A stretch of 64,000 nt of DNA, taken from positions 94,377 through 158,376 of the forward strand of contig JAURNY010000018.1 of the NCBI GenBank assembly GCA_030829955.1, read 5' to 3'. This stretch comes from Gammaproteobacteria bacterium (lineage in GTDB: Bacteria > Pseudomonadota > Gammaproteobacteria > Eutrophobiales > Eutrophobiaceae). Below, piece after piece: positions 26,341 to 62,674 of this stretch. The position numbers and the translations under genes are program-made. The number at the start of each line of letters is the position of its first letter. Positions within the stretch are counted from its first letter, which is position 1. The notes beneath the pieces are model-generated. The model was not told the DNA's origin. It was given only the letters and a program-made list of their open reading frames with translations, and did no database searches.

Positions 26341-26351
26341 GCTGCAGCTGA

Positions 26352-28050: not shown

Positions 28051-28061
28051 TACATTAGTCT

Positions 28062-28943
28062 CTAAACATCAATGCTTGTGATCTTACTAATCATGAAATA
28101 GCCCATAGCTTCCATCACAATAATAATTGTTAATACTACCCAGCCTATTGTCGTCGTCCAGAGTTTACTCATAGCTTCTGGCTCCATGAAATTCAGTAAA
28201 ACGCCAAGCAGTATAGGTAAGCCTGTCATCACAATGCCCTGTAGCTTTCCCTGCGCAGTTAAACTTTCAATCTTGCCTTCCATCATGGCTTTACGGCGAA
28301 GTGTTTCGCCTAGCGTTTCCATGGTTTCAGCAAGATTACCGCCAACTTCGCGGTTGATTAGCAGAGCGGTTACCAACATACCAAAGTCAGCTATTGGAAT
28401 TCGTTCTTCCATCTTCTTTATAGAGACTTCAAACTCCACGCCTAGACGTTGTTCTTTAAGAAACAGTTCAAATTCCTGTGATAGGGGGGCAGGTTGTTCC
28501 TTGACTAAACTTTCCAATGCAATATTCAAACTGGCGCCGGCACGCATCGCACCGGAAATCATTGCCAAACCATCAGGCATTTGTGCTTCGAAACGTTTCA
28601 AACGCTGTTTGCGCATTTGTTTATAAATAGCAGTTGGGAAAAATAAAATGAGTCCAAGCATGGCAACTGTGGCTGCCGTATCGCGCGTAACGACAAAGGT
28701 CAAGACTGGTAAAACAATAATGGCGATGATATTCATAGTAAAGAGCTGATTTGGATCAACTGTCATGAACATATCTGAGGCATTCGCTGTCGCTGTTGAG
28801 GTGAATGTTTGCTTATAATTATCAGCAAACTCCTGTACCTTTTTGCCAAGTGCAAACCAGATGATCGCAACTGCCAAAAACACAGCTGCTAACGATAAAT
28901 AATAAGTAACGTTTGCAGAAAGAGAAAGGAAGAAGTCCATCAT
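28062..28943 (-). CDS. tadB: Tad pilus inner-membrane platform protein TadB (T2SS F family)
   Basis: 293 aa. T2SSF domain, immediately downstream of the ATPase gene. Confidence 0.85.
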   Translation of the reverse strand: MMDFFLSLSANVTYYLSLAAVFLAVAIIWFALGKKVQEFADNYKQTFTSTATANASDMFMTVDPNQLFTMNIIAIIVLPVLTFVVTRDTAATVAMLGLILFFPTAIYKQMRKQRLKRFEAQMPDGLAMISGAMRAGASLNIALESLVKEQPAPLSQEFELFLKEQRLGVEFEVSIKKMEERIPIADFGMLVTALLINREVGGNLAETMETLGETLRRKAMMEGKIESLTAQGKLQGIVMTGLPILLGVLLNFMEPEAMSKLWTTTIGWVVLTIIIVMEAMGYFMISKITSIDV

Positions 28944-28948
28944 AATAA

Positions 28949-30643
28949 TTAAGAGAAGATAGACATATCCACTGGTAAACCTCGTTGACGCATCTCTTCA
29001 TAAAAATGAGGAATTGCACCGGTTGCTTCAAAACGACCCTTTACTTTACCGTTTTCATCAAAGCCTTCCTGTTGATAACGGAAGATATCCTGCATGGAGA
29101 CAATTCCCGATTCTACACCGGTAATTTCGGTAATGTTTATGACGCGTCTAGAACCATCTGAAAAACGGGTTTGTTGGACAACAATATGAATTGCAGAGGC
29201 GACCATTTCACGAATAGCAGAGACAGGTAAATCCATGCCAGACATCATTACCATGACTTCGATACGTGCAATCAAATCACGCGGTGTATTAGCATGCGCA
29301 GTTGTTAATGATCCATCATGACCCGTATTCATCGCCTGTAACATGTCCAGTGTTTCACCACCACGACACTCACCAACTACAATTCGGTCAGGACGCATAC
29401 GTAAACAGTTTTTTACCAAATCACGAATTGGAATAGCACCTTTACCTTCAAGGTTTGGAGGTCGTGATTCAAGACTAACAAGGTGTGGTTGTGCGAGTTT
29501 TAGTTCAGCCGCGTCTTCTACAGTAACGATACGTTCTGATGGAGGAATAAAGTTTGATAACACATTAAGTAATGTTGTTTTACCGCTACCGGTACCACCT
29601 GAAATAATAATATTCATATGGTTATTTACTGCAGTTTCCAGAAACTTAACCATGTTTTGATTTATGGCGCCAAAGTTAACCAGATCCTGTGCGACTAGTT
29701 TTTGCTTAGCAAATTTACGAATAGTTAAACAAGGACCACGTAATGCAAGCGGAGGAATAATAGCATTTACACGCGAACCATCTTTTAAACGCGCATCAAC
29801 CATAGGAGAACTTTCATCAATACGACGGCCTAGTGGTGAGACAATACGTTCTATAGCCGTCATTACCGCATCGTCACTTGAAAAGGTAATTCCTGATAAA
29901 CTTAATTTACCTGACTGTTCGACGTAAATTTCATCAAACTTGTTGACCATGATTTCAGTTACTGACTCATCTGCTAATAACTCTTCTAACGGACCGAGAC
30001 CTACGGCTTCGTTCAATACTTCTGCTGCCAGTTTTACTTTATCAACATCATTAGGCAATTTAGAACCCATCTCTTCGATGATTTCTTTAATCATGCCCTG
30101 GACATGTTTACGTAATTTTTCTTCATCCATGCTACCTATATCAGTGCGACGAAGATCCATCGCGGCTAATAGTTCATCATGTACACGATTACGCCATTTG
30201 AATTTTTCATTATGTTGAAGATTGATTAACGTTTTGCTGACTTCTTCTGATTCATCTAGTGCCTGATGATGTTGAATGCCGATGACCGTACGCATACCAT
30301 CAAATAAACTATCATCTTCTTCATCAATTTCATCCATATCGTTCGTTGCAGAACTCATGCCTGCCTTAATATAATATCCGGCGATAATGATTTCATCAGA
30401 AGATCGAATAGGACCGTGATGGTCGACATCAACACCATTGACCTCAATACGTTTCTGTCCGGTTTTATCTTCAATAAACAAACCTTCTGAAGTTCGATGT
30501 ATCTCTGCATGATGGGGTGCGACTTTCCAACCGCGTAACTGAATAAAGTTATCACGCGCCTTACCGATAGTGCACTCACTTACCGGACAATGAAAATTCT
30601 GTATTCTTTCGCCTTTACTATTATTTACGATGACATCAAACAT
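28949..30643 (-). CDS. tadA: CpaF/TadA secretion ATPase with an N-terminal FHA domain
   Basis: 564 aa. Residues 1 to ~100 show an FHA pattern (TIGKARDNFIQL...HAEIHRTSEGLFIEDK...NGVDV). The remainder is a T2SS-E/CpaF ATPase (Walker A GGTGSGKTT, Asp box, Walker B, His box). Confidence 0.88.
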   Translation of the reverse strand: MFDVIVNNSKGERIQNFHCPVSECTIGKARDNFIQLRGWKVAPHHAEIHRTSEGLFIEDKTGQKRIEVNGVDVDHHGPIRSSDEIIIAGYYIKAGMSSATNDMDEIDEEDDSLFDGMRTVIGIQHHQALDESEEVSKTLINLQHNEKFKWRNRVHDELLAAMDLRRTDIGSMDEEKLRKHVQGMIKEIIEEMGSKLPNDVDKVKLAAEVLNEAVGLGPLEELLADESVTEIMVNKFDEIYVEQSGKLSLSGITFSSDDAVMTAIERIVSPLGRRIDESSPMVDARLKDGSRVNAIIPPLALRGPCLTIRKFAKQKLVAQDLVNFGAINQNMVKFLETAVNNHMNIIISGGTGSGKTTLLNVLSNFIPPSERIVTVEDAAELKLAQPHLVSLESRPPNLEGKGAIPIRDLVKNCLRMRPDRIVVGECRGGETLDMLQAMNTGHDGSLTTAHANTPRDLIARIEVMVMMSGMDLPVSAIREMVASAIHIVVQQTRFSDGSRRVINITEITGVESGIVSMQDIFRYQQEGFDENGKVKGRFEATGAIPHFYEEMRQRGLPVDMSIFS

Positions 30644-30661
30644 AATTAAACCTGAATAAAA

Positions 30662-32161
30662 TTAATAAACGATATCGATATTATCTCTATCAATAGCCTC
30701 TATAGTTGCGCGTATGCCTTCCTCAGCATATTCAACCATGTCACGATTATGTTGAGATTGACCGTCGATAATTTCTGGCGTGACAAAGATAACCAGTTCC
30801 GTTTTATCATTAAGAAATGATTCAGAACGAAATAGGCGACCCAGAATTGGAATATCTTTCAAAAACTTGATGCCATTAATGGTTTCTGAGGCTTGTTGGT
30901 CAATAAGCCCAGACATCACTAGTGTTTCACCTGATTTCAAGATCACATCTGCTTCTGTGCGCCTAGTTAATAAACCGGGGATGTTATTAATCGCAACACT
31001 AAAATCCAGAGAGCTAATTTCGGTGGTGACATTGGCTCTGACATTATTATTACGATCAATTTCTGGCGTTACACTTAACTGAATACCATATTCCTTAAAT
31101 TCAACTGTCGTACCATTAATGGTAGAAATCTCAATTGGAAATTCACCACCAGCTAGAAATGTTGCTTCACCACCGCTACGGGCAGTTAAACGTGGTTCGG
31201 CCAGAATCACTGCATCGCCGGAACTTACCGCAAAATTAATTCGGGAAACAATTTCTGCCGCTATACCAAAGTAACCTAATGGACTACTGGCATTGTCCGC
31301 AGCACTTAAATTACCGGTAAAACTAGGTAAACCATTATCATCAGTAACTGTTGTTCCGCGAAACGTACTATTATTTACAGCATCAAAAGCAAAGGCAGCA
31401 GTAGGGCCAGAAACCGATGTATTCCAGTTAATGCCGAGGCTGTCAGTGAAAGATTTGCTGAATTCAGTAATCTTGGTGTTCATTAACACCATTTTGTTAT
31501 CCGGCATGTTCATATCGAGACTAGCACGTTGAGTTAAATCCATCAGTTCGCTGAATTTAGCCTGAACAGTTTCAATAGCAGTTGCATAACCATTATCAAC
31601 AGTACCACTCAAGACAATATTTTCACCGACAATTCGTACTTCAAGTCCTTCCAGTTCAGATAACAGATCTTCAATTTCGAGTTTTTTTCTAACCAAATCA
31701 TTAACAGCAAAATTAATATTATTAAGAATCTCCGGATAAGCTTCTATCAGCATCGCAATTTGAGCTTCATTGCCATAACCAACCTGTCCATTAAGGATAA
31801 TACGCTCACCAACAATATCTACATGTAAACCTGGTATATGAGCCAGAAGTTTCTCAATTTCATTTTTTCGTTGATTAATATTGTTTGAAGTATTTGCTAC
31901 ATGCACCATGTAATCTTTTTCAGTGCCATTACTAAACCAGACATGAACATTGGTAGAGCCCTCTTCTTCGGCAATTAGGATTAACTGACCGCTATTTAGT
32001 AGAGAATTACTTAACACCGAGGGACTGCCGACTGCAATACGTTCAATATTGCCAAGCTTTAATATTTTGATCTCACCAATATACATATCAAAGCGTTCAG
32101 CAGCATTTACCATTGCTGTGAGCATAAGCATGCTTAGGATTAATATTATTTTTTTCATCAT
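30662..32161 (-). CDS. rcpA: Tad secretin RcpA/CpaC
   Basis: 499 aa. Signal peptide, two N-terminal secretin-N/BON-like repeats and a C-terminal secretin domain (GIKFLKDIPILGRLF). Confidence 0.88.
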   Translation of the reverse strand: MMKKIILILSMLMLTAMVNAAERFDMYIGEIKILKLGNIERIAVGSPSVLSNSLLNSGQLILIAEEEGSTNVHVWFSNGTEKDYMVHVANTSNNINQRKNEIEKLLAHIPGLHVDIVGERIILNGQVGYGNEAQIAMLIEAYPEILNNINFAVNDLVRKKLEIEDLLSELEGLEVRIVGENIVLSGTVDNGYATAIETVQAKFSELMDLTQRASLDMNMPDNKMVLMNTKITEFSKSFTDSLGINWNTSVSGPTAAFAFDAVNNSTFRGTTVTDDNGLPSFTGNLSAADNASSPLGYFGIAAEIVSRINFAVSSGDAVILAEPRLTARSGGEATFLAGGEFPIEISTINGTTVEFKEYGIQLSVTPEIDRNNNVRANVTTEISSLDFSVAINNIPGLLTRRTEADVILKSGETLVMSGLIDQQASETINGIKFLKDIPILGRLFRSESFLNDKTELVIFVTPEIIDGQSQHNRDMVEYAEEGIRATIEAIDRDNIDIVY

Positions 32162-32205
32162 ATCTCTCTTCCTAACTCCTTATTCTTTACGCTTCATGAC
32201 TCAAT

Positions 32206-32460
32206 TTATTTAGTACGTTTCGGAAACACAGTAATCTGTTTTGCAACACCATTTTCTGATTGTCCACCAACAATCATTTTTATAGGTTTCCCCTGCAAAG
32301 CAAAATTATCTATATAATTTATTTCTTGAGTTGTATGTTTATTGAATTCAACTATCGGACTATCTTTCGACGTTGTTACAATCTCATTAAATTCCGAATC
32401 ATTCGCTTGCAATGAGCTGAATAAAAATAAACAAGCTGTGCCAGCGAACACTTTAAGCAT
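32206..32460 (-). CDS. small secreted protein paralogous to the C-terminal module of the upstream CpaB-like protein
   Basis: 84 aa with a signal peptide. Its C-terminus KMIVGGQSENGVAKQITVFPKRTK parallels the C-terminus of the 704-aa protein (ELIIGGSSEDGVAKSQKVALPVETK), with visible DNA-level similarity. Start abuts the upstream stop. Confidence 0.55.
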   Translation of the reverse strand: MLKVFAGTACLFLFSSLQANDSEFNEIVTTSKDSPIVEFNKHTTQEINYIDNFALQGKPIKMIVGGQSENGVAKQITVFPKRTK

Positions 32461-43888: not shown

Positions 43889-44731
43889 ATGAAGACTTTA
43901 ATTAACACTAAAAACATGATTTTTATAGTTTTTTTAGCCATAACAGGTGTTGTTTTCGCTGGAGTTGCCCCAGAAGATTTTCGAGAAAAAAAATCTGACG
44001 AAGCTTGGGAAAAGAATTTGCGTAAGCAAAATTTTCAGGACAGGAAAATTATTATAGGTGTTGAGCAGAATATACTTGAAGTTAAAGCACCTTACACCGC
44101 AGAAGATGCGACAGTCGTTCCCGTATCTATACACACTAAAATTGATCAAACCCCGGAACGCTATATCAAGAAAATGCACATTTTTGTGGATAAAAATCCT
44201 TTGCCATTAGTAGGTGTTTTTGAATTCACGCCAGATAGCGGTAAAGCAGATCTCGCCATGCGAATTCGTGTCGATACGTTTAGTTATGTACGTGCCGTAG
44301 CGGAACTGAATACAGGTGAATTGTACATGGCGAAAAACTTTGTAAGGGCAAAAGGCGCTTGCTCCGCACCGCCACCAGCCAGTATGGAAGATTCAAAGAA
44401 ACTGCTGGGTAAAATGAAAATGAAGATGTTAGGGAATCTCAAGTATGGTGAACCTAATTTAATGCAAGTTAAAGTGCGTCATCCAAACATTACGGGTATG
44501 GCGCCATTAAAGATTGGTTCACATGTTATTCCCCCCGCATTTTATATGGATACTTTTGAAGTTACATATAATGATAAGCCGATTGTTAAAGCATTATTAA
44601 CGTTTTCTATCAGTATGGACCCGGCATTGCGTTTTTTCTTTGTGCCTAGAAAAGAAGGTGTTATGACAGTGAAAGGTACAGATACCAAAAAGAATGTCTT
44701 TAGTTCAACCTATGAAGTCAAAACCACATAA
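43889..44731 (+). CDS. fused SoxY-SoxZ-like sulfur carrier protein
   Basis: 280 aa with a signal peptide. N-terminal SoxY-like region with the Cys in a GACSAPPP linker, and a C-terminal SoxZ-like Ig fold (VKVRHPNITGM...PAFYMDTFEVTYNDKPIVKA). Confidence 0.6.
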   Translation: MKTLINTKNMIFIVFLAITGVVFAGVAPEDFREKKSDEAWEKNLRKQNFQDRKIIIGVEQNILEVKAPYTAEDATVVPVSIHTKIDQTPERYIKKMHIFVDKNPLPLVGVFEFTPDSGKADLAMRIRVDTFSYVRAVAELNTGELYMAKNFVRAKGACSAPPPASMEDSKKLLGKMKMKMLGNLKYGEPNLMQVKVRHPNITGMAPLKIGSHVIPPAFYMDTFEVTYNDKPIVKALLTFSISMDPALRFFFVPRKEGVMTVKGTDTKKNVFSSTYEVKTT

Positions 44732-45091
44732 GTGATAAGTTTCAGTATGTTTTGGAAATAATTATTAAAGGGGCAATATCATCCTGTTAATATTGATGAA
44801 CTTGAAGTCTGGGCTCAGGAAACCGAACCACAAGTGGAAAAAGGTATTCGTTCAGTTGAAGGCAAATGGAGGGTTATACTGGCCTCATATGAAAACTAGC
44901 AGATCGTATTTCAACAGCAAAATCAAATATTACAAGTAGGTATGGCGATTGATATTGATCAGGAATATATTAATTAACAAGCTTGGTTTAGATTAGTGAT
45001 AGTAAGTTACAGAGCAGATGCAAGTTTATTTTAGATGAAATGAAATCTACTTATGGTTTTTGCCAGCCCGCGCATAAGTAAGCGATAATAT

Positions 45092-46441
45092 ATGACTGAT
45101 ACGAAACATAATAAAGAATTTGAATATGTGGCAGGTAATGGCTTATTAGATAGACGTTTGTTTTTAAAGCGCGGCATTCAGTTTGGAACTATTACTGCGC
45201 TTGCTTCAACCGTCACTCAACTATTACAAGCAGAAACTGAAACAGCATTTAATTCGGCACGTCCTCCCTGGATGACTCAACCCGGAAAACCATTTTCTTT
45301 GTACGGTAAACCATCCGAATTCGAGGATGATGTAGTCCGGTTCCCAACGCAAAATGAATCAGTTCTTGGCAATGGAGTTTCGTGGTCGCCACTTCATTTA
45401 ATGGAAGGCACGATTACACCAAACGGTTTACATTTCGAAAGACATCATAATGGCATACCGCAAATTGATCCTGCCAAACATAAATTATTAATTCATGGCA
45501 TGGTAAAGCAGGATCTTTTTTTCAGAATGGAAGATTTATACCGTTACCCCATGCAATCAAAGATTTGTTTTATCGAATGTGGCGGTAATAGTAATGCGGG
45601 TTGGAATAGTTCACCCTCGCGTAGTGAAGCAGGTTATTTTAATGGCATGGCATCAAATAGTGAATGGACAGGTGTGCCGTTAAAGGTGTTACTTGCAGAA
45701 GCGGGTTTGAAATCTTCTGCAAAATGGTTGATTGCCGAGGGTGCTGATGCCTTTAATATGCAGATGTCGATTCCAATTGAGAAAGCTATGGATGATGCAT
45801 TCCTTGCCATCTATCAAAACGGTGAAAAGATTCGTCCCGAGCAAGGTTATCCATTGCGTTTAATTGTTCCCGGTTGGGAAGGCGTATTAAATGTTAAATG
45901 GTTACGACGTTTGATGATTACTGATCGGCCTGTGATGGCAAGAAATGAAACATCGCGTTATACCGAATTACAACCCGATGGTAAGGCAAGACAATTTACA
46001 TTTTTTATTGAAGCTAAATCATTAATTACATCACCATCTGCCAATATGTTACTTAAACAACCGGGTCTTTATCAGATTACGGGTTTGGCATGGTCGGGTC
46101 GCGGCAAGATTAAAAAAGTCGATATCTCTGCTGATGATGGCAAAACCTGGGCAGAAGCAGAGTTACAACAACCCGTATTGGATCGTGCCTTCACCCGTTT
46201 TCGTTTGCCCTGGCAATGGAATGGTAAAAAGACAGTGATTAAGAGTCGTGCAATGGATGAAACAGGATATGTACAACCAGAACGAACCGAACTTATTAAA
46301 AAACGCGGTAAACATGGTTTTTATCATTACAATGCCATTACGAATTGGCAAATAGATGAAGATGGCTATGTTTCTCATGTCTATGATAAAAATGAAAATC
46401 AAACACTCTCTGACAATAGTATTGATAGCAGTTGGGATTAA
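45092..46441 (+). CDS. soxC: molybdopterin sulfite/sulfane dehydrogenase catalytic subunit (SoxC/SorA family), Tat-exported
   Basis: 449 aa. Twin-arginine signal (LDRRLFLKRG), sulfite-oxidase Moco domain and C-terminal dimerisation domain. Confidence 0.8.
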   Translation: MTDTKHNKEFEYVAGNGLLDRRLFLKRGIQFGTITALASTVTQLLQAETETAFNSARPPWMTQPGKPFSLYGKPSEFEDDVVRFPTQNESVLGNGVSWSPLHLMEGTITPNGLHFERHHNGIPQIDPAKHKLLIHGMVKQDLFFRMEDLYRYPMQSKICFIECGGNSNAGWNSSPSRSEAGYFNGMASNSEWTGVPLKVLLAEAGLKSSAKWLIAEGADAFNMQMSIPIEKAMDDAFLAIYQNGEKIRPEQGYPLRLIVPGWEGVLNVKWLRRLMITDRPVMARNETSRYTELQPDGKARQFTFFIEAKSLITSPSANMLLKQPGLYQITGLAWSGRGKIKKVDISADDGKTWAEAELQQPVLDRAFTRFRLPWQWNGKKTVIKSRAMDETGYVQPERTELIKKRGKHGFYHYNAITNWQIDEDGYVSHVYDKNENQTLSDNSIDSSWD

Positions 46442-46937
46442 TCTTGTCTTTGCAGAAACAATGCAAGGTCCAGGCTTAGGACATGCTGCGACTATTGACG
46501 AAGTCGCAAAATGGAATATCAGTGTTTTTCCTGATGGTGAAGGCTTACCAGAAGGAAGGGGCTCAGTTAGCGAAGGTGAGGTGGTTTACAATACACAATG
46601 TGTGGGGTGTCATGCTCAAGGTGGTATAGGTTCTGCAGTAGGTGATCAACTTGCTGGCGCACAAATGGAATTAACTAGTGATTATCCTGAAAAAACTATT
46701 GGCAAATATTGGCCTTATGCAACAACTGTGTTTGATGTTATTCGTCGATCTATGCCGATGACGACTCCCGGATCATTAACTGATAACGACGCGTATGCTG
46801 TGACGGCTTATCTTTTGTATTTGAATAATTTGATTGATGTGAATGCGGTGATAGATAAGTCATCCTTACCAAAGGTTAAGATGCCGAATGAAGATGGGTT
46901 TGTGAAAGTTTATGAAGTGAAGGAGACGAATAAATAG
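46392..46937 (+). CDS. mono-heme c-type cytochrome (SorB / short SoxD-like partner subunit)
   Basis: The track ORF starts at 46356 with a Met cluster. Proposed start is the internal ATG at 46392 (MKIKHSLTIVLIAVGINLVFA signal peptide). Single CVGCH heme motif. Overlaps the soxC 3' end. Confidence 0.65.
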   Translation: MKIKHSLTIVLIAVGINLVFAETMQGPGLGHAATIDEVAKWNISVFPDGEGLPEGRGSVSEGEVVYNTQCVGCHAQGGIGSAVGDQLAGAQMELTSDYPEKTIGKYWPYATTVFDVIRRSMPMTTPGSLTDNDAYAVTAYLLYLNNLIDVNAVIDKSSLPKVKMPNEDGFVKVYEVKETNK

Positions 46938-46980: not shown

Positions 46981-48072
46981 TTATTTACTCAATATCGATT
47001 TTAATGTGTCTATAAAACGTTTGACATCATCAGCAGTCATTTCGCCCATGCATGATATCCGGAACATGGCTTTAGCAAAGGCGCCTTGTCCTGCATAGAT
47101 AATAAAACCCGCTTCTTTCAGTTTGTCATGCAAGTTGTCATAACTAACATTTTCAGGCAAATGAAAGGCATTTAATACACATGATGATTCTTCTAACTCC
47201 ATATAAGGTTTAATTCCATTTTCAATTAAACCCTTTCTTACTTGATTCATACGTTGCCAATACAATTTATGCCTTGCTTGCCAACCGCCATTTTCGCTTA
47301 ATTCATCCAGTGCTTCAGCAAGAGCATAGAAGGTTTGTATCGATTGGGTAAATGGTGTGCCATTGGCATCCTGATTTTTTAAATAGGTCACTAAATCAAG
47401 ATAAAGTGTTCTGGCTGGTGTTGCAGACATTTGACTAATTCCTTCACGATTACCAATAACAAATGATGTGCCTGGCACGCCATGTAAACATTTGTTCGCC
47501 GTTGCTGCACAGGCTGCAAGGTTCCATTCATGAAACTTTATTTCTTCCGCACCAAAGCTACTCACAGCATCCAGTAAAATAGTGGCATTGCTATTATATT
47601 GTTTGCATAGCCTGGCAACAGCATCAATATCATTTAAGCGGCCACTTGTAGTTTCATGATGAACGATAGCGATGTGTGAAAACGCTTTTTCATAATTGAG
47701 TTCACCCTCGATAAGTTTTAGATCGAGAGACTGACCCCATTCATGATGAACAATTTTGTGATTGATACCATGTATTTTGGCAATTTTAGTAAGACGTTCA
47801 CCGTAAACCCCGTTTTCGATGATTAAAACCTTGCCATGTGCTGGCACAAAACTCGTCATCATCGCTTCCATAGCTGATGTGCCAGAGCCGGTAAATAGAA
47901 TACTTGCCCAATCTTTATTATCTAATTTATATACATCAAGTAAATCAGTGCGTATCTTGCTTTGTAATTCAATAAACTCCTGTTCACGATGACAAAGGTC
48001 GGGTTTTAACAATGCCTGCCGTACTCGTTCACTCAATACAACAGGACCGGGATTCATTAATATTTTTTTCAT
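46981..48072 (-). CDS. phnW: 2-aminoethylphosphonate:pyruvate aminotransferase
   Basis: 363 aa. Class V aminotransferase. Position downstream of ppd and ppm matches the canonical AEP biosynthetic operon. Confidence 0.8.
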   Translation of the reverse strand: MKKILMNPGPVVLSERVRQALLKPDLCHREQEFIELQSKIRTDLLDVYKLDNKDWASILFTGSGTSAMEAMMTSFVPAHGKVLIIENGVYGERLTKIAKIHGINHKIVHHEWGQSLDLKLIEGELNYEKAFSHIAIVHHETTSGRLNDIDAVARLCKQYNSNATILLDAVSSFGAEEIKFHEWNLAACAATANKCLHGVPGTSFVIGNREGISQMSATPARTLYLDLVTYLKNQDANGTPFTQSIQTFYALAEALDELSENGGWQARHKLYWQRMNQVRKGLIENGIKPYMELEESSCVLNAFHLPENVSYDNLHDKLKEAGFIIYAGQGAFAKAMFRISCMGEMTADDVKRFIDTLKSILSK

Positions 48073-49226
48073 TAGAACTTACTCCCTATCTGATGCATAG
48101 CACGTTGCAAAACTTCAACAGGTAGCACATCTGGTCGCGGCAAATCATCTATTGTACCCGCTTTGATCTTGATATGTCCGAAAGCAGGGCCTTCATTATT
48201 GGTTGAGGCAAATAGTTCATCAATGATTGATAATTGGTTACCTGAAAGACTAAGACCATAACCACTGGCTTCAGCAACTTTAGCAAAATCAATATTAGCC
48301 GCAACCGTTGCTTGTGCTCCGGTTGAGTCATGTACTTCATTATCCAGCAGGATATGAATCAAATTATTACCGGCATAACTACCAAGTGTTGCGAAGTTAC
48401 CCATACGCATTAAACCTGCACCATCACCATCTATGATGACCACTTTCAAATTAGGTCTTGCCAGCGCGACACCTAAACCAAGTGAAGAAGCGCAACCCAT
48501 TGAACCGACCATATAAATATGATTGTGTCGATCATCAATCGCATAAAGTTCTCGGCCAGTAAATCCAGTCGTAGCAATAACTAATGAATTGTTAATCGGA
48601 GTATGTTCAATGATCTTTTTTAAAACCGTATTTCGATCAGCAAGATCAATTTGTTCATCGAAAGAATACCGAAGTTCTTTTTTGCGATTGCGAATATCAG
48701 TAACCGGATTCTTTTTTAATATATTTTTTTTAACTGTACCTTTTTCCATAATAAAGGCATAAGGGCGTTGTTCTTTTTCCATATGGTCCATCGCACGTTT
48801 CAGCGCTGGTTGAATATCTTTCGCATCTTTGGGAAATATTTCCCATGGCACATGCATGAGATCAAATAATTTTTCTGTAATTTGACCCATCAGTTCATGT
48901 TGTGGTTCATCCTTTAAACCGAGTTGGCCTCGATGTGTAGTAATAATTAAAAAAGGAATTCGAAAGACATAGGATAATGATGTAATTGGACTAACTGCAT
49001 TCCCTAAACCGGAGTTTTGCATCATCACGATTGAACGCTGACCACCAATCGCAGCGCCTGCTGCAGTTGCTAATGCATCACCTTCGTTAGTAGATGAAAC
49101 ATATTCGAGAGAATCGTCATTAATGACGTAGTTTATAAAAGGTGTCAGGAAAGAGCAGGGGACGCCTGTATAACGTGTAAAACCCAGCTCGCGAGCAGCT
49201 TCGACAAATTCTTCAGCTTCGATCAT
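48072..49226 (-). CDS. ppd: phosphonopyruvate decarboxylase (TPP-dependent)
   Basis: 384 aa. TPP-binding motif [10 protein letters not shown]...NN...[10 protein letters not shown]. 1-nt and 4-nt overlaps with neighbouring genes. Confidence 0.85.
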
Positions 49227-50839
49227 GCTGTAAAATCACCTGCGCGATTAATATCATCCAGCGAATTAACATCCAGCCAATGTCCATCAATATAATGCAC
49301 ATTAATCGGTTTACCTTTTTCAATCAGATGATTGAGTAAATCAGGAATAGTGAGTTGATTAAAGTCATCGCGTTTGCGTAATTCCTTTAATGCTTTTGTA
49401 ATCCATTTTTTACCTTGTTTGCGAATACGCAGCATACCTATCCAGTAACCGGATGGTTTATTTCTGTCTGATTGGCGTGCTAGTTTTTTCAATAACACAT
49501 CCTGCATAAAGGGGTTTCGATCATCCTTCTTGCTACAAAAAGCAAGGTCAGGTGAACCGGAAAGATTAGGATTATCCAGTGCTGAATCGACAACTACTAC
49601 TATTTCCCCTGAGCTTTCGAGTAAATCACGCATAATATAACCACGGAATAACAGGTCGCCATAGAAAACCAGCATGTCATCACTAAAGTCTTTTTCTGCA
49701 CACGCGAATGATGTTAATTCATCAGAATTTTTAAATTGTTTATTAATGCGTTTATTAATGCCGGGAATATTGATTGCATTAGCTTTATAACCTGCAATAA
49801 CAGTCGTGTTATTAATACCCAGTTTTTTAAGTTCATCAATAGAACGGCGAAGTAATGTTTTTCCGCCAATATTAATCATTGTCTTGGGTTTATCCTCGGT
49901 CAGTTCATATAGTTCACTGCCACGACTCGCCGCAAGAACAATCGCATTAATATTTGACTGCTGACTTAGATATCGATCCTGTGCTTGTTTTAATTCATCT
50001 GCACCCTGTAATTCAAAGATATGATTAACTGTTGCAATTTGATCTTCCACATCCACTAATGATTCAAACTCAAAGATTTGGTTGCTAATTTTTTCCATCG
50101 CTGTAATTGATGCGCGAATCATATGATTTGCCCAGATCACCAGATTAATACCTGCTTCACGAAAGACATCGGTTGGGGTGCTGTAGTATTTGGTTGGTAC
50201 AATAACTAATGGACATCGCCCTGCCCATTCTTTTGCAAAGGCAAGCACTTCATCAGGGCGTGATAATTTACTATGAATTAAAATGCCATTAGCACCTGCT
50301 TTTCTATAAGCTTCCGCACGTTTTAATGCTTCATCCATTCCCCAGCCAGCAATCAGGGCTTCTACACGTGCAACAATACAAAAGTCATCATCACGCTGAC
50401 TATCTTTACCGGCTTTGATTTTGCCACAAAATTCATCAATATTTGCCAATGGTTGTTTCTCGCCATCGATAAAACTATTGGTTTTGGGAAATTGTTTATC
50501 TTCAATACAAACACCGGCGATATCACGTTGTTCAAGCTTCATTACCAGTCGTCGCATATTATTAAAGTTGCCATAACCGGTATCACCATCCAGCAATATC
50601 GGAATATTGGTGACATCCGACATAAACTCAAGCATGTCGACAACCTGTGTCCAACTGGCTTCATTACTATCACGCACACCAAATTGTGCCGACATGGATA
50701 AACCACTTCCCCAAACGCCTTTGAAACCGGCATTTTCAACAATACGTGCCGACATTCCGTTGTGTGCTTCCATAATGAATTCGAGCTTATTTGACTCGAG
50801 TAAATTACGCAGTTGTTTGGTTTTTTTTGTTTTAGCCAT
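49223..50839 (-). CDS. phosphoenolpyruvate phosphomutase fused to a C-terminal nucleotidyltransferase (PntC-like phosphonate cytidylyltransferase)
   Basis: 538 aa. Residues 1 to ~290 are Ppm/isocitrate-lyase superfamily ([11 protein letters not shown]...). Residues ~300-538 are a nucleotidyltransferase fold ([14 protein letters not shown]...GGKTLL). Confidence 0.8.
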
Positions 50840-50850
50840 TTAATTCGTTT

Positions 50851-51582
50851 TTATATGTTAGGTAATATTTCATTTTGGGCCCGTGTAATATCTTCCGGAA
50901 AATCTATTTCAATCCATGCCAGACTAGTGATGTCTTCAACTGAAAATTTTTCCGGTGCTTCTAGCAAGCAATCACGTATTGCTTCTTCATAAGGTATTGA
51001 TGAGTCATCTAGTTTTAAATAATCATCAATTTTATCAATCATCATTTGTGCGATATCGCGATTGAATTTGAAAAAACCCACTGATTCACCTTGAGTCTCA
51101 AATTTTAATGATGCATCAACTTTCTTTCTAAATTCATTGATATGACCGTTACTATCAATACAAACTTTCACCGGTTCATCACCAGGAATAAAATCTTTAT
51201 CAATTAATAAACAATTTTCATGAGTTGATTTTATCAGGCGTTTAAGAATGTCAGGGTGATAAAGTACATCGGCATCCATTAGTATCATGTTCTCATCCCT
51301 GACCATGATGTCTTTGGCATAGGCTAGACTAATCAAGCTGCCTTCCTGAAATCTCGGATTAAGAATGAAGTGTAAATTATTCTCTGTTTGTAAATGTGAC
51401 TGAATTACTTCGGCCTGATAACCGACGACTATAGTGATATCTTGAATGCCATTTTGCTTTAATAGTTTTATATGACGTTGCATCAGACTGATAGCGCCAA
51501 ACTCCATCAGTGATTTGGGCTTATTGTCTGCGGAAGAACCAAGTCGATTTCCCATACCCGCTGCCAGTATGATTGCCTGCAT
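50851..51582 (-). CDS. LicC-like sugar-phosphate/phospho-base nucleotidyltransferase (second, stand-alone)
   Basis: 243 aa. N-terminal MQAIILAAGMGNRLG (NTP-transferase G-loop). First gene of the AEP operon. Confidence 0.75.
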   Translation of the reverse strand: MQAIILAAGMGNRLGSSADNKPKSLMEFGAISLMQRHIKLLKQNGIQDITIVVGYQAEVIQSHLQTENNLHFILNPRFQEGSLISLAYAKDIMVRDENMILMDADVLYHPDILKRLIKSTHENCLLIDKDFIPGDEPVKVCIDSNGHINEFRKKVDASLKFETQGESVGFFKFNRDIAQMMIDKIDDYLKLDDSSIPYEEAIRDCLLEAPEKFSVEDITSLAWIEIDFPEDITRAQNEILPNI

Positions 51583-57583: not shown

Positions 57584-58570
57584 TTATTGATAATCGTGTT
57601 CTTTAAACCAGTTGATTGCATCAATTAATCCTTTAGTTCCGGCTCTAGGATTATATCCCAGTATTGTTTTTGCTTTTTCACTTGTGAAATACATTTTTTT
57701 CTTCGCCATCAACACACTATCTACAGTTATGCGGGTTGACTTGCCGGTGATAGCGGCTATGCGCTCCATGCACCATGCGATTGGAATAATGAGATTATGA
57801 GGAAGTTGTATGCTAGGTGGATCAATATCTTCATGCAGACATATAAATTCCAGAATTGATGCTAATGTCATATTATCTCCTCCCAATATATAACGCTCAC
57901 CAATTTCACCTTTTTCCATTGCCAGTAAATGGCCTTCGGCAACATCATCTACGTGAACAATATTTAATCCGGTATCAACATAGGCAGGCATACGATGTTG
58001 AATAGTATCAAGCACAATCAAACCCGTTGGTGTCGGTTTAATATCGCCGGGTCCAACAGGTGTTGAAGGGTTTACAATCGTAATGGGCGCGGATTCTTTT
58101 TTTATTATTTCCTTTACTGATTCTTCTGCCAGATATTTTGAACGTTTATAATGCCCCTGCATATCGTCAAGCGTTGAAGGAGTAGTTTCATCAGCAGGTG
58201 TACCATCATCGTGCACCCCTAATACTGCCACACTACTGGTGTATACGATCTTGCTAATGGACTGTTCCAGCGCAGCCATCATTAATGCTTTGGTGCCATC
58301 AACATTTGTTTTATACATATTTTTTGGATCAGGGATCCAGAGCCGATAATCAGCAGCAATATGAAATAGATGATCACATCCTTTAACAGCTCGTTTCAAA
58401 GAAGGCTGGTCAAGTAAATCAGCTTCGATTACTTCCGTGTTAAGGTTGGAAAAGTTACGTTTATCTGACCCTTTGCGAACCATGGCACGAACTTCATAGC
58501 CCTTATTGAGCAATAATTTCAATACAGCAGAGCCAATAAAGCCATTTGCACCTGTGATTAATATTTTCAT
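57584..58570 (-). CDS. hpnA: NAD-dependent epimerase/dehydratase (hopanoid-associated sugar epimerase HpnA-like)
   Basis: 328 aa. Rossmann motif ILITGANGFIGS and a YxxxK catalytic motif. Adjacent to hpnN in the shc operon. The symbol is assigned from context. Confidence 0.65.
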   Translation of the reverse strand: MKILITGANGFIGSAVLKLLLNKGYEVRAMVRKGSDKRNFSNLNTEVIEADLLDQPSLKRAVKGCDHLFHIAADYRLWIPDPKNMYKTNVDGTKALMMAALEQSISKIVYTSSVAVLGVHDDGTPADETTPSTLDDMQGHYKRSKYLAEESVKEIIKKESAPITIVNPSTPVGPGDIKPTPTGLIVLDTIQHRMPAYVDTGLNIVHVDDVAEGHLLAMEKGEIGERYILGGDNMTLASILEFICLHEDIDPPSIQLPHNLIIPIAWCMERIAAITGKSTRITVDSVLMAKKKMYFTSEKAKTILGYNPRAGTKGLIDAINWFKEHDYQ

Positions 58571-58571
58571 A

Positions 58572-61157
58572 TTAATGTTGCTGTCTTTCTTCCAGCCAGA
58601 TTAGAAAAGAGGGTAATACGATAACTGTTGCGAACATCATACATAACAAACCAATAGTCAGCATAATCCCCATGCTTGCTGTGCCAGCATGCTTTGAAAA
58701 GGCAAGGCTGCCGATACTGAAAATGGTGGTAAATGAACTGACCAATACGCCCCTGAATGCACTGGTTAAAAATAGATTTTTATCGTTTGCTTGATCTTCA
58801 CGAAAACGATTTACGATATGAATACCACTATCTACACCAATGCCAAGTAATAATGGTAATCCAATAATGTTAGCAAAATTTATGGGTTGATTAATCAACG
58901 CCATAGATGCCATAGAAAATAAGCTTCCAGTAAATAATGTGCCAAGGATTAATACGACATCAACTTTAGATTTAATAAGTATTAATAAAATTATTGTGAT
59001 GGCAATTAGTGCATAAAGTATTGCAGACTGGAATGACTTAATAACGGCAGCCCCAGCTTCAACATTGACAACAGGGGGGCCAATGATGGCATCGTCATGC
59101 TTTTGTAGTTCTCTAACAAACTCAATCATGGCATCATGATCATTGAGGTCTTTTTCCGGATATATTTCGAGTTTATAAAAACCTTTTTTATACCATCTGG
59201 CCTTGATTTCATCAGGCACATCAGATAATTCAACATTGGTAGCGGCAAGACCTGTTTCCAATAAATTGATGCTGTCAACAAAGTAATATAGTAAACGTTT
59301 TTCAATATCAATTAATTCTATCGGGTGATTAACCAAATATTCTAATTTTTTTTGTAAGTCAATTATTTGATCATTTTTCATCTCCAAAGGATACTGCTTC
59401 AACATGGATAATAAATTGTTAGTAATTTTTAAACGTTCATCATTTTTTATTGCCACACTTGATTGTGTCGGTAAAAGTGGACCCATCAAAATATTTAGAT
59501 CATCGACTATGAATAATTTCCCTTCTTGATTTTTGGGTACCAGATCATTTAGCCAGACAACATTGTTTACAATATCTATTGCTTCAAATTGTGATTTGGC
59601 GAGTTCAGCTCTAGCTTTATCTTTTTCCAATGTAACTACAAACCATGGAGAGGTTTCCTTATCTTTTAATAAATCCTGAAAGGTTTTAACTGATTCATTG
59701 TTCTGGTCTTGAAGATTAAGTGTGTTGCTATCAAATCGTAAATGATTGAGCGAAAAGCTTGCGACAATGATTAATATAGCCGTAATTACCAATATGGATT
59801 TATAGTTTTTATAAGGTAATTCACTTAAATAAAGTTTAATCTTCTCTGATGATGTACTTTTATCGGTTGCATCAGTTTTTTTCTCAAAACTTAGCAAGGC
59901 CGGTAGTAAGGTGAACGTATAAAATAAACTGACGAGCATGCCACAACCTGCTATCCAGCCAAGTTCCGCAACCCCTTGATAATCGGTAGGCATAAATGAA
60001 TAAAAGCCAATAGAAGTAGTTAATGCACATAAAAACAAGGTTCTGAAAATATTAATTGCGGCAAATCTTAATGCACTTTGTGTATTAAGATTATCTTTCT
60101 GAACCTCTCTAAAACGTAGGCATAAATGAATAGCAAAGTCGATTCCCAAACCAATATATAAAACTGCAAAGGCGACTGAAATAAGATTTAATACGCCGAC
60201 TGTGAACGCAGCCAAAGCAGTGGTGGCGATAAGACCTAGAATCAAAGTGATAATAGAGGAGAAAAATAACCATAATGAACGAAGTCCAATAATCAGCATG
60301 ATTGCCACCAAAATAATCGATGCGAGGATGGCAATAACATTTGCTTCGGCAACACTCTTTAATTCTTCATAAGCCAGAGCGGCGTTGCCACTTAGGCGAA
60401 TAGATGTTTTTCCTCCATCTTCCAGCCCAAGCCTATTAACTGTGTCATTGATATATCGAATAGCTATTTCGCCAGGCAGTAATTCATCCGGGTCTTTCAG
60501 TATTTTTGTAATAATAAATTCACGATAAACAGATTTATTTTTTGTGTCAGCTTGTAATAATGTTTGCCAGGAAAGACGATGCTCTTTTTCTTTGAGTGTT
60601 TTATTAAGTTCTGATAGGAGAATTGATAAATCAATTTCTTCACCATCTGCTTTTGCCACGAACACCTGCTCAAGCATATTAAAAAAACCACGGAGTGATT
60701 GATCAGATAATAAAGTACCTATAAATGGTTGTATTTTGGTAAGACGATTGGATAAATCATATAACTCATCTTCAGTCATAAAGAGAAATGCTGTTTCACG
60801 AAAAAAGGAAATCGCAGAAGGGAAATATATATCTTCGATCAAATAAGGTGACGCTTTCAAAGATGTATAAAGTTTCGTTGCATCCTCACGCGCCCTGTCA
60901 GGGGTGTCTGCCTCAATTACGATCAGAACATTATCAAGCGTTTCAGTAAATATATCCTCATACTTAATATCAAGCTGTCGCCATTTTAGATCTCTAGACA
61001 ACATATCTCTAGTGTCAGTGGTCATGCCAAGATGATTGACGATTAACCAGAGCGATAAGAGAGTAATTAAAGCAATTAAAACAAATACACCAAAACGAAA
61101 GCGCTGAATTATGGTGATCCAGCGTTCGATAAGATGGCTTATGCGATTATTATTCAT
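58572..61157 (-). CDS. hpnN: RND/MMPL-family hopanoid transporter HpnN-like
   Basis: 861 aa. Two sets of 6 TM helices, each preceded by a large periplasmic loop (RND/SSD architecture). Located in the shc operon. Confidence 0.75.
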   Translation of the reverse strand: MNNNRISHLIERWITIIQRFRFGVFVLIALITLLSLWLIVNHLGMTTDTRDMLSRDLKWRQLDIKYEDIFTETLDNVLIVIEADTPDRAREDATKLYTSLKASPYLIEDIYFPSAISFFRETAFLFMTEDELYDLSNRLTKIQPFIGTLLSDQSLRGFFNMLEQVFVAKADGEEIDLSILLSELNKTLKEKEHRLSWQTLLQADTKNKSVYREFIITKILKDPDELLPGEIAIRYINDTVNRLGLEDGGKTSIRLSGNAALAYEELKSVAEANVIAILASIILVAIMLIIGLRSLWLFFSSIITLILGLIATTALAAFTVGVLNLISVAFAVLYIGLGIDFAIHLCLRFREVQKDNLNTQSALRFAAINIFRTLFLCALTTSIGFYSFMPTDYQGVAELGWIAGCGMLVSLFYTFTLLPALLSFEKKTDATDKSTSSEKIKLYLSELPYKNYKSILVITAILIIVASFSLNHLRFDSNTLNLQDQNNESVKTFQDLLKDKETSPWFVVTLEKDKARAELAKSQFEAIDIVNNVVWLNDLVPKNQEGKLFIVDDLNILMGPLLPTQSSVAIKNDERLKITNNLLSMLKQYPLEMKNDQIIDLQKKLEYLVNHPIELIDIEKRLLYYFVDSINLLETGLAATNVELSDVPDEIKARWYKKGFYKLEIYPEKDLNDHDAMIEFVRELQKHDDAIIGPPVVNVEAGAAVIKSFQSAILYALIAITIILLILIKSKVDVVLILGTLFTGSLFSMASMALINQPINFANIIGLPLLLGIGVDSGIHIVNRFREDQANDKNLFLTSAFRGVLVSSFTTIFSIGSLAFSKHAGTASMGIMLTIGLLCMMFATVIVLPSFLIWLEERQQH

Positions 61158-61181
61158 TTATAAATGAATATGTCGATAAAA

Positions 61182-61928
61182 TTAAACGCGAAAGACGTAT
61201 TCTTTATCAGTCAGACGTTCGATATCCGGAGGATAGCTTAATCTTTTGTCATCATAATATTTACGACGTTTGTCACCTTCAGCAGCAGCATTATATGTCA
61301 CGTATAAAACACGTCGTTTATCGTTGGTTAGATTTGGCCCAGAGCGATGAGGCACAAATGAATCAAAGAAAACAGCATCGCCTGGTTGAGTTGGAATAGA
61401 TTCATAATCAAGTGAATTTTCTTCCAGTGGCTTCCATTTTTCTCCGATCAATCCTCTATCGTGGTATCCGCCTGCCATTTCAAGACAGCCGTTTTCGATA
61501 GTGGAGGCATCTATACTTATCAGAGCGGTGATATGTAATTTGCCATATTTATCCCAGCCAGCCTGAACATCCTGATGAGCTTTAAAACCATCTCCGCCCG
61601 GCATTTTGAAGTTGATTTTGTCTTTAAATAATACAGAGTCATCATGAAATAATTGAGATGTGATCTGTTGAATTTCACTTTTGGTAAATAACTCACTAAA
61701 GCCTGCATGATAAGGTTCAATGTCTTCCATACGGGAGAGGATGCGTCGATTATTGTCGAGTCTACTCTGTTCAAAATACATCATGTATTTTCCGGGGACT
61801 TCCGGATAGTTTGTTACTTCATCTGTCCATGCAGTAATTTTTTTCATGGTTTCTGCGCCATAAAGTCCGCGGATAACCAGATAGCCGGATGATTTAAATT
61901 GTTCAATCTGTTCGTTACTTAATTCCAT
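61182..61928 (-). CDS. phytanoyl-CoA dioxygenase (PhyH)-family Fe(II)/2-oxoglutarate oxygenase
   Basis: 248 aa. PhyH-like fold with an HxD...H facial triad (HQDVQ ... PHRSGPN). Confidence 0.7.
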   Translation of the reverse strand: MELSNEQIEQFKSSGYLVIRGLYGAETMKKITAWTDEVTNYPEVPGKYMMYFEQSRLDNNRRILSRMEDIEPYHAGFSELFTKSEIQQITSQLFHDDSVLFKDKINFKMPGGDGFKAHQDVQAGWDKYGKLHITALISIDASTIENGCLEMAGGYHDRGLIGEKWKPLEENSLDYESIPTQPGDAVFFDSFVPHRSGPNLTNDKRRVLYVTYNAAAEGDKRRKYYDDKRLSYPPDIERLTDKEYVFRV

Positions 61929-61951
61929 ATTTGTATATTTATAAAGATTAA

Positions 61952-62674
61952 CTAAGGTTGCATATTATAGAGAAAATGCCTGTCTTTTAAATCGGGCGCA
62001 ATAAGTTTCATAGTGTTTATCGCTTTTTTAAAAGCCCGTGCCAATATTAATAATGATGGAATCTGTGCTGGATTAAATATACAGGATAATACAAAACTTA
62101 TTGGCTTGGGCTTACCAAGATGATCAGTATGTTTGATGACAGCTGCAGGTATTGCCGCTATTGCTTCATCACATATGGTTCTGATTGCGATAAAATCCAG
62201 TTCCATCTCCTTTGCAAGTCCTGCAATAGCAGCACTTTCCATATCAACAGCATCGGCACCAGATTGTTGATGCAGTTTTACTTTGTCTCTTGGTGATGAA
62301 CAAATAATTTCATCAGAATAGATTGAGCTGCTAACAATACGATAACTATCTGAACTTAAATGTATTAAACATTGTTCTTGCCAATGGGCACTACATGGGT
62401 ACTCATTATCATTAGAAATAATTTTATCTGCGATAATAATATCACCTGAATGTAATCCTTCATTTAATCCGCCTGCTACTCCCCAGCTAACTAGCGCTTC
62501 GGCCCCTTGCTTGATTAATAACGCAGCGGCATGTAACGCACGATCATGACCGATGCCACTTAGGCATAACAACATATTATCGTTAAGAGAACAGGGCGTA
62601 TTTAGTGTTAACGAATGGGGTACAAGACATGCCGCTTCATCCGGCAAGGCTGCGATGATGCCTATCTTTTTCAA
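61952..62674 (-). CDS. hpnG: hopanoid-associated phosphorylase HpnG (PNP/UDP nucleosidase family)
   Basis: PNP_UDP_1 fold (IGIIAALPDEAA...SWGVAGGL...DMESAAIA). The track ORF reaches 62788, but that overlaps the shc 3' end by 118 nt. A TTG at 62674-62672 overlaps the shc stop (TTGA) and is the more likely coupled start, though uncertain. Confidence 0.65.
   Translation of the reverse strand: MKKIGIIAALPDEAACLVPHSLTLNTPCSLNDNMLLCLSGIGHDRALHAAALLIKQGAEALVSWGVAGGLNEGLHSGDIIIADKIISNDNEYPCSAHWQEQCLIHLSSDSYRIVSSSIYSDEIICSSPRDKVKLHQQSGADAVDMESAAIAGLAKEMELDFIAIRTICDEAIAAIPAAVIKHTDHLGKPKPISFVLSCIFNPAQIPSLLILARAFKKAINTMKLIAPDLKDRHFLYNMQP

Follow-up and report, generated by a model that had tools for sequence, protein, structure and literature searches.

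A fused SoxYZ-like carrier gene next to soxCD in a marine gammaproteobacterium: a possible sulfane-sulfur dehydrogenase that depends on a carrier and stands apart from a full Sox system

In a 64-kb stretch of DNA from an uncultured marine gammaproteobacterium (referred to below as the window), three open reading frames (ORFs) on one strand, at 43889-44731, 45092-46441 and 46356-46937, encode a fused SoxY-SoxZ-like periplasmic carrier, a SoxC-type molybdoenzyme and a short SoxD-type cytochrome c, respectively. All three are found where an earlier interpretation made from the DNA letters alone (the sequence-only reading) had placed them. The suggestion made there, of a SoxC-type dehydrogenase that uses a fused carrier and does not belong to a full Sox cluster, is also the best available one: when one genome per GTDB species was scanned and the flanks were examined up to 10 kb, relatives of the carrier were obtained at 80 loci, and in about 20 of these the carrier gene adjoins soxCD, three of them outside the clade of the window. 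We suggest that the module may be a carrier-dependent sulfane-sulfur dehydrogenase, i.e., an enzyme that would oxidize sulfur bound to the carrier, and assign to this tentative reading a probability of about 0.45.

The 449-residue protein of the second ORF carries the Oxidored_molyb and Mo-co_dimer domains and passes the SoxC model TIGR04555 with 592.3 bits (cut-off 420). Over residues 58-430 it aligns with SoxC of Paracoccus (PDB 2xts, chain A) at E=2.7e-108, compared to E=1.4e-27 for SorA (2blf). Its Cys163, in the motif ECGGN, aligns with the cysteine in ECAAN of 2xts_A, and the chain ends in a 19-residue C-terminal tail specific to the clade. A sulfite dehydrogenase of the SorAB or SorT type was rejected, as the protein reaches 146.9 bits with the SorA model NF052245 (cut-off 600) and 142.7 bits with the SorT model NF052247 (cut-off 570). 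Of the earlier description as a Tat-exported (twin-arginine translocation) enzyme of the SoxC/SorA type, the SoxC part and the twin-arginine motif are retained, but not the SorA part.

For the cytochrome, the PDB match is SoxD, in its N-terminal haem domain (2xts_B; E=2.1e-33, residues 40-183 of the query on 4-147 of the chain), and the alignment spans both the CxxCH motif and the RSMP segment. In its longest form the protein has 193 residues, with a signal peptide that ends at ..NLVFA/ET, a single CxxCH motif (CVGCH) and only two cysteines, so that there is neither a CMXXC motif nor a second haem site. It is thus mono-haem, as had been proposed, and is not a di-haem SoxD of the Paracoccus type. 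The sequence-only reading had pointed to this difference, which is no anomaly given the match to the SoxD haem domain; judged by this homology, the small protein is a genuine but short SoxD, not a generic cytochrome. Short SoxDs that lack CMXXC are typical of SoxCD copies found outside sox clusters (PMC13500833).

Also the proposal that the 280-residue protein is a SoxY-SoxZ fusion is supported. The Pfam families SoxY and SoxZ match residues 50-158 (E=1.9e-31) and 185-274 (E=1.6e-16), respectively, and the PDB matches are SoxY 4uwq_B (E=7.5e-7) and SoxZ 1v8h_A (E=3e-4). A Sec-type signal peptide (residues 1-24) precedes a conserved N-terminal helix (31-49), a SoxY-like domain (approximately 63-155) and a SoxZ-like domain (approximately 177-277). 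At the finer level of NCBIfam the protein passes TIGR04557 with 219.9 bits (cut-off 140), residues 40-271 being aligned on profile positions 1-225 of 226, while it stays below the cut-offs of TIGR04488 (75 vs 125 bits) and TIGR04490 (38.1 vs 76 bits) and is therefore not a true SoxY or SoxZ in that classification. By these profile scores the carrier is a member of TIGR04557, a family associated with pyrroloquinoline quinone (PQQ) dehydrogenases, rather than a fusion of true SoxY and true SoxZ. An AlphaFold2 (AF2) model calculated from an alignment of 18 sequences (mean predicted local distance difference test score, pLDDT, 79.7; predicted template modeling score, pTM, 0.78) predicts a beta-sandwich at residues 63-155, a lower-confidence loop (156-165), a short helix (166-173) and a second beta domain. 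The best non-antibody folds recovered with this model in Foldseek are the SoxY chains of 4uwq and 2oxg.

The sequence-only reading had called for a search for a cysteine-containing carrier motif, and such a motif is present. The only cysteine of the carrier is Cys158, within RAKGACSAPPP, and it is unchanged across 18 aligned homologues. The Pfam SoxY match stops exactly at this residue, and a weak alignment with SoxY of P. pantotrophus (2ox5_Y) reaches it as well, for which reason Cys158 is plausibly the counterpart of the canonical carrier cysteine. In the AF2 model it is found in the lower-confidence loop, which joins the final strand of the SoxY part (145-155) to the helix that follows. The family is a wide one: of 1.84 billion representatives clustered at 50% identity, 99 reach E<=1e-30 and 494 reach E<=1e-10. 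The top 150 matches include 116 full-length representatives, and in 113 of these a G[GAS]C motif, mostly GGCSAP, is found at the same place. A search of IMG/VR yielded no viral copies of this carrier clade.

The surroundings of the three genes do not supply the remainder of a Sox pathway within the 64 kb, in agreement with the earlier claim that soxA, soxX and soxB are absent from the window. The haem site of SoxD is the only CxxCH in open frames of at least 60 residues on both strands, which excludes SoxA and SoxX from this stretch, and scans of ORFs of at least 150 residues together with precomputed Pfam assignments revealed no SoxB-like protein, metallophosphoesterase or 5'-nucleotidase. 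With the same scope (ORFs of at least 150 residues scanned, precomputed Pfam for the rest), no SoxH of the metallo-beta-lactamase fold, no rhodanese and no thioredoxin-like protein were found, and tblastn searches of the window with the PQQ dehydrogenase of a related locus (L017) and with its neighbors gave no match. By domain scans of the larger ORFs and precomputed Pfam for the neighbors, the other genes have only housekeeping and envelope functions; they include sucA-sucB-lpd, citrate synthase, malate dehydrogenase, mutS, pgi and manC, as well as htpG, a gene for a GAF/HD protein and prmB.

Clustering of the neighbors of the 80 carrier loci yielded three genomic contexts. Context A, which comprises about 20 loci with the window among them, has the order htpG, GAF/HD, prmB, carrier, soxC, soxD. 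In context B (31 of the 80) the carrier gene is divergent from that of a PQQ dehydrogenase of the methanol/ethanol family (XoxF-type), accompanied by a cupredoxin, a MoxJ-like binding protein and an NAD-type formate dehydrogenase. Context C, found at 17 loci in Methylococcales, presents formate dehydrogenase, LysR and a SoxH-like hydrolase, labeled "quinoprotein relay system zinc metallohydrolase 2", followed by the carrier. Contexts B and C match the SoxYZ-S4 and S2 fusions of the literature, for which a role in carbon rather than sulfur metabolism has been proposed (PMC11237559). A gene of the ped cluster of Pseudomonas, PP_2677, is annotated as belonging to the same carrier family (PMC12997753).

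In a neighbor-joining tree the carrier copies of contexts A and B are intermingled, and their arm sequence is the same. One metagenome-assembled genome (MAG; JBDNFW01) harbors both a context-A copy (L010:9959-10843) and a context-B copy (L013:997-1842). The two are sisters with 89% identity in protein and 87% in DNA, a likeness that ends at the gene boundaries and indicates a recent duplication or gene conversion. Given this near-identity and the mixing of contexts A and B in the tree, the carrier beside soxCD is of the same kind as that beside XoxF, and a carrier subfamily specific to soxCD was ruled out.

The pairing was also approached from the side of the enzyme, using six SoxC homologues on long contigs with 65-81% identity to that of the window. 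In all six loci soxCD occupies the syntenic site, where it follows prmB (in L092, the GAF/HD gene) and precedes aroC or the phosphonate genes. In the closed chromosome OZ271833.1, soxCD (L088) has no adjoining carrier gene, and a carrier gene (L043) is located approximately 370 kb away at a xoxF locus, whereas in another closed chromosome, OZ253477.1, the carrier gene adjoins soxCD. The stand-alone soxCD between prmB and aroC is the general and probably the ancestral unit. Since soxCD alone occupies the syntenic site in all six distant loci, the insertion of the carrier gene is derived, and we infer that a copy of the XoxF-side gene was inserted upstream of soxC in the clade of the window.

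Outside this clade the adjacency was found three times: in L066, the carrier of which is 52% identical to that of the window; in Methylohalomonas lacus (L067), where soxCD follows the carrier gene downstream at a distance of about 2 kb and in the opposite orientation; and in a betaproteobacterial MAG (L083), the carrier of which is 43% identical and has a GGCSAP arm. Two further genes recur in sister loci and are missing from the window. A regulator of the ArsR/SmtB family (about 120 residues; L014:9624-9986, + strand) is encoded directly upstream of the carrier in L012, L014-L016, L018 and L019. It has conserved cysteines in ..AEC-LKAIAHPTRL.. and ..DVMEC.. and matches NF033788 with 77.7 bits, while the BigR model gives 40 against a cut-off of 155. 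A secreted CxxC redoxin (AhpC/TSA-Redoxin, ResA/TlpA-like, with a signal peptide; L014:13007-13522, - strand) adjoins soxD in L010, L011, L014-L016, L018, L019, L026 and L066; in members of cluster 26 it has the motif WSPTCSAC. The redoxin is also encoded beside stand-alone soxCD, at L089:5384-5923 and L092:6853-7395. Canonical sox clusters are accompanied by an ArsR-type regulator, SoxR, and by the periplasmic thioredoxins SoxS and SoxW. The published role of SoxR and of sHdrR, also of the ArsR type, is that of sulfane-sulfur sensors, and the regulator of the sister loci could be such a sensor.

Several related loci differ from the window in other respects. At L021:10926-19320 the carrier gene and soxC are set apart by an insert of approximately 9 kb, which includes the genes for a beta-helix/NosD-like protein (812 residues) and a TPR-sulfotransferase (609 residues). 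At L022:9704-10816 a carrier gene, with a longest ORF of 370 residues that is extended at the N-terminus, follows htpG and the GAF/HD gene, and there is no soxCD within 10 kb downstream. In L011, L012, L014-L016, L018, L019 and L021 a conserved secreted protein of about 190 residues with the motif RPFDCMQKPK.M.CHLPYPY is encoded between prmB and the regulator or carrier (L014:8967-9533, - strand); it has no match in Pfam or NCBIfam and is absent from the window. The same position is occupied in L088 by a gene for 193 residues that has no Pfam match.

Table 1. Positions of the carrier-soxC-soxD module and of its motifs in the 64-kb window
Feature	Position	Strand	Basis
Fused SoxY-SoxZ-like periplasmic carrier, 280 residues	43889..44731	+	Pfam SoxY and SoxZ, TIGR04557, PDB, AF2
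Carrier arm RAKGACSAPPP, residues 153-163; Cys158 codon 44360-44362	44345..44377	+	alignment, Pfam
Non-coding spacer, 360 nt, carrier gene to soxC	44732..45091	.	no ORF >48 residues
SoxC-type molybdopterin subunit, 449 residues	45092..46441	+	TIGR04555, PDB 2xts_A
Tat motif DRRLFLKR in SoxC, residues 20-27	45149-45172	+	sequence
Putative Mo-ligand Cys163 in ECGGN of SoxC	45575-45589	+	alignment to ECAAN of 2xts_A
SoxD-type mono-haem cytochrome c	46383..46937 (longest ORF from 46356)	+	PDB 2xts_B
Haem motif CVGCH of SoxD	46599-46613	+	sequence
RSMP segment of SoxD	46746-46757	+	aligned to 2xts_B
Dual-coding overlap, soxC 3' end and soxD 5' end	46392..46441	+	kept in 16 related loci

The order in which the carrier is followed by SoxC had been given correctly, but a non-coding gap separates the two genes. 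In relatives this gap measures 50-550 nt. Among six same-species contigs, the spacer DNA shows 100% identity in five and 99.7% in the remaining one, and no match to it was found in other loci. Its + strand has no terminator-like site, and promoter-like sites are no commoner there than in shuffled sequences. A regulatory RNA or a small gene was also considered and rejected: the spacer (44732-45091) has no Rfam match and no ORF longer than that given in Table 1. At 44762-44866 there is a weak in-frame resemblance to the helix-turn-helix region of the ArsR regulator of sister loci (a local score of 44, which 5 of 300 shuffles also attained, and noted post hoc), which may be a gene remnant or may be due to chance.

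The long overlap of soxC and soxD had raised the suspicion of a frameshift or of a wrong start site in the region 46350-46450. Its size, which depends on the choice of ATG, is as first reported: 86 nt from the first ATG (46356), 59 nt from that at 46383 and 50 nt from that at 46392. The start is likely one of the latter two, and gene callers applied to same-species metagenome contigs (L001-L006) chose the equivalent of 46383. A minimal overlap of 47-56 nt is found across 16 related loci, where both frames are kept, i.e., the SoxC tail ...SIDS(G/S)WD* and the core of the SoxD signal peptide, ...LIA(A/V)GIN.... Farther relatives share 44-50 nt between the two genes (L088, L089), 17 nt (L090-L092) or none (L093). 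In the window, the final 16-17 codons of soxC double as codons of the soxD signal peptide, read in another frame, and the unusually high conservation of the signal-peptide core suggests selection on the SoxC tail.

An assembly or annotation artefact, in which soxC and the cytochrome gene would be one frameshifted gene or part of a decaying pseudogene cluster, could be read from the length of the overlap and from the fragmented genes in a MAG of the same species (L087; GCA_038142745.1, JAYQKP010000002.1), in which htpG, the GAF/HD gene, soxC, soxD and others are all in pieces. Because housekeeping genes such as htpG are split there too, these fragments fit indel errors in that assembly, where soxC would be mis-scored as a pseudogene. 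Identical full-length proteins, with the same neighbors, are found on more than 20 independent metagenome contigs from JGI and ENA. A frameshift or wrong start was rejected on the grounds that both proteins align end to end with chains A and B of 2xts without a change of frame. Together with the conservation in 16 loci, these observations establish that the overlap is real and not an error, and make an artefact hardly credible.

The window further contains other gene clusters. Directly downstream of soxD, at 46981-51582 on the - strand, is a biosynthesis cluster of the 2-aminoethylphosphonate type (a class-V aminotransferase, phosphonopyruvate decarboxylase, a fusion of phosphoenolpyruvate mutase and nucleotidyltransferase, and a second nucleotidyltransferase), which probably makes a phosphonate-decorated surface glycan or lipid. 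A hopanoid-type cluster at 57584-63927 (-) includes a squalene-hopene cyclase (62671-63927), an MMPL transporter (58572-61157), a PNP_UDP_1 phosphorylase-family protein, a PhyH-family dioxygenase and an NAD-dependent epimerase. The region 25420-38601 (-) harbors a large pilus cluster of the Tad/Flp type with genes for TadE-like, TPR and Tad-domain proteins, an FHA-domain secretion ATPase, a secretin and RcpC.

If the module functions as a sulfane-sulfur dehydrogenase, Cys158, in the flexible loop GACSAPPP, would first take up sulfane sulfur in the form of a persulfide, which the molybdenum (Mo) center of SoxC would oxidize to cysteine-S-sulfonate. Electrons would be transferred via the haem of SoxD to periplasmic c-type cytochromes and from there to a terminal oxidase. 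Loading of the sulfur (in canonical systems by SoxAX) and release of sulfate (by SoxB) would be performed by other proteins, or by chemistry, not encoded in the window.

On the most economical view, SoxCD would here do its known job of oxidizing carrier-bound sulfane sulfur, with the fused carrier as its substrate protein in the clade of the window. The homology is strong and is specific to the SoxCD that acts on SoxY-bound sulfur (2xts_A, 2xts_B, TIGR04555); the lone cysteine is found at the end of the SoxY profile, with its GGC core kept in nearly all full-length representatives; and the carrier gene is positioned directly upstream of soxC-soxD in lineages inside and outside the clade. In addition, the regulator and the redoxin of sister loci recall SoxR and SoxS/SoxW, and OZ271833.1, with soxCD and no adjoining carrier gene, still holds one at its xoxF locus. 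Several observations weigh in the opposite direction. The carrier cysteine is internal, followed by a linker and the SoxZ domain and thus tethered on both sides, so that the ability of this loop to reach the Mo site of SoxC would have to be assumed. No carrier gene adjoins soxCD in any of the six distant loci, which implies that SoxCD needs no neighboring carrier gene, and the 64 kb contains no enzyme for loading or releasing sulfur. The SoxYZ-S4 clade, moreover, has been argued to serve carbon rather than sulfur metabolism (PMC11237559), and the out-of-cluster SoxCD of Hyphomicrobium denitrificans is reported to lack the canonical activities (PMC13500833).

The main rival explanation is that SoxCD is a dehydrogenase for free sulfite, or for another small sulfur oxyanion, which detoxifies or harvests this substrate and leaves the carrier unused, the carrier gene being a neighbor by accident of insertion and serving a PQQ dehydrogenase. 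The members of TIGR04555 are called "sulfite dehydrogenase" by NCBI, soxCD stands alone between prmB and aroC in the six distant loci, the carrier family has its usual home in xoxF/fdh loci, and in the window 360 nt separate the carrier gene from soxC. However, the enzyme is far nearer to SoxC than to SorA or SorT, whose models it fails, and this clear affinity disfavors a sulfite dehydrogenase; the adjacency has also arisen or persisted in several divergent lineages. SoxCD alone is reportedly inefficient with free sulfite, according to work on Paracoccus. H. denitrificans is described as lacking efficient sulfite-oxidizing enzymes, yet a paralogous SoxCD is counted there (PMC13500833). On balance we consider a free-sulfite dehydrogenase rather unlikely.

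A distinctly less probable explanation assigns the carrier mainly to periplasmic oxidation of C1 compounds or alcohols, together with the XoxF-type PQQ dehydrogenase and SoxH-like hydrolases, such that SoxCD would be a maintenance enzyme that clears sulfane sulfur blocking the carrier thiol by oxidizing it to a hydrolysable S-sulfonate. This arrangement would account for the intermingling of carriers from soxCD and xoxF contexts with an identical arm, the pair with 89% identity in L010 and L013 included, and for the company of the carrier in context B (PQQ dehydrogenase, MoxJ-like protein, cupredoxin, formate dehydrogenase) and context C (SoxH-like hydrolase, formate dehydrogenase); it also agrees with the inhibition of methanol degradation by thiosulfate in H. 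denitrificans, as cited in PMC11237559. On the other hand, the scenario is purely inferential, and neither a PQQ dehydrogenase nor a SoxH-like gene is present in the window. Slightly more doubtful still is the idea that the fused SoxYZ-like protein serves two oxidoreductases alike as a general thiol carrier of the periplasm. At the xoxF/fdh locus, formaldehyde would be bound to the cysteine as a thiohemiacetal and converted by the PQQ dehydrogenase to a thioester, from which the SoxH-like zinc hydrolase would free formate for the adjoining formate dehydrogenase; at the soxCD locus, the same cysteine would hold sulfane sulfur, to be oxidized by SoxCD. Such a carrier, if real, would be a protein-based periplasmic counterpart of the glutathione-dependent oxidation of formaldehyde and persulfide, and would link methylotrophy and sulfur oxidation in marine bacteria.

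Returning to the reading as a sulfane-sulfur dehydrogenase, the module can be compared with systems already described. The enzyme resembles Paracoccus pantotrophus SoxCD (2XTS) in that the whole mature SoxC is aligned, including the cysteine of E-C-x-x-N, and in the Tat signal and the gene order soxC-soxD. It differs in that the genes are found outside soxXYZAB, SoxD has one haem domain only, SoxC has the additional 19-residue tail overlapping soxD, and the neighboring carrier has an internal cysteine. In canonical Sox systems the carrier cysteine is on a free GGCGG arm at the C-terminus of SoxY, and a true SoxZ is a protein of its own, neither of which applies to the carrier of the window; as given above, SoxA, SoxX and SoxB were not found in the 64 kb. 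From the TIGR04557 family the carrier cannot be told apart by architecture, being the same fusion with a single-cysteine G(G/A)CSAP arm. In contrast to homologues with 60-83% identity, which adjoin an XoxF-type PQQ dehydrogenase, a MoxJ-like protein and formate dehydrogenase, its gene is located upstream of soxCD among housekeeping genes, with no PQQ dehydrogenase, SoxH-like protein or rhodanese in the window. SorAB and SorT/SorU share with the module the pairing of a Mo subunit of the sulfite-oxidase family with a small mono-haem cytochrome c, but by E-value the enzyme is approximately 80 orders of magnitude nearer to SoxC, and the cytochrome resembles SoxD.

Precedents include Methylophaga, marine gammaproteobacteria whose genomes contain two soxYZ fusions along with soxCD, soxH and soxY/Z while lacking soxA, soxB and soxX (PMC6548844), and similar incomplete Sox sets are found in isolates listed in PMC13098332. 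The window, as far as can be judged from 64 kb, shares with Methylophaga the combination of soxCD with a fused carrier in the absence of soxAB; an adjacency of fusion and soxCD is not reported for Methylophaga (locus tags 742/744 vs 1373/1377), and no function was assigned (PMC6548844). The module is also similar to the paralogous SoxCD found out of cluster (PMC13500833) in being apart from soxABXYZ and in having a short SoxD that lacks CMXXC, a likeness that rests on the 64 kb, whereas that class is defined only in genomes with a complete sox cluster; PMC13500833 makes no mention of a neighboring fused carrier. Out-of-cluster SoxCD and fused carriers are thus both already known, separately. 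We did not find it described in the literature that fused carrier genes and soxCD form a conserved physical pair, that the carriers encoded at soxCD and xoxF loci are nearly identical, or that soxC and soxD have a dual-coding overlap.

Fused SoxYZ-like carriers are found in clusters for PQQ- or lanthanide-dependent alcohol dehydrogenases of methylotrophs, pseudomonads and animal symbionts, and SoxCD outside sox clusters is common in marine heterotrophs; both families are widespread and are routinely annotated as sulfur-oxidation genes. Matches to soxC, soxD, soxY or soxZ in metagenomes should not be taken as evidence of thiosulfate oxidation. In the clade of the window, a carrier of this type was copied to a position beside SoxCD and kept there. 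This pairing is the first concrete genomic hint that we have found as to the cargo of the carrier cysteine and the target of stand-alone SoxCD, and it hints that a carrier so far tied to methanol dehydrogenases handles sulfur. It thereby provides a testable pair of proteins and a substrate hypothesis for two widespread families.

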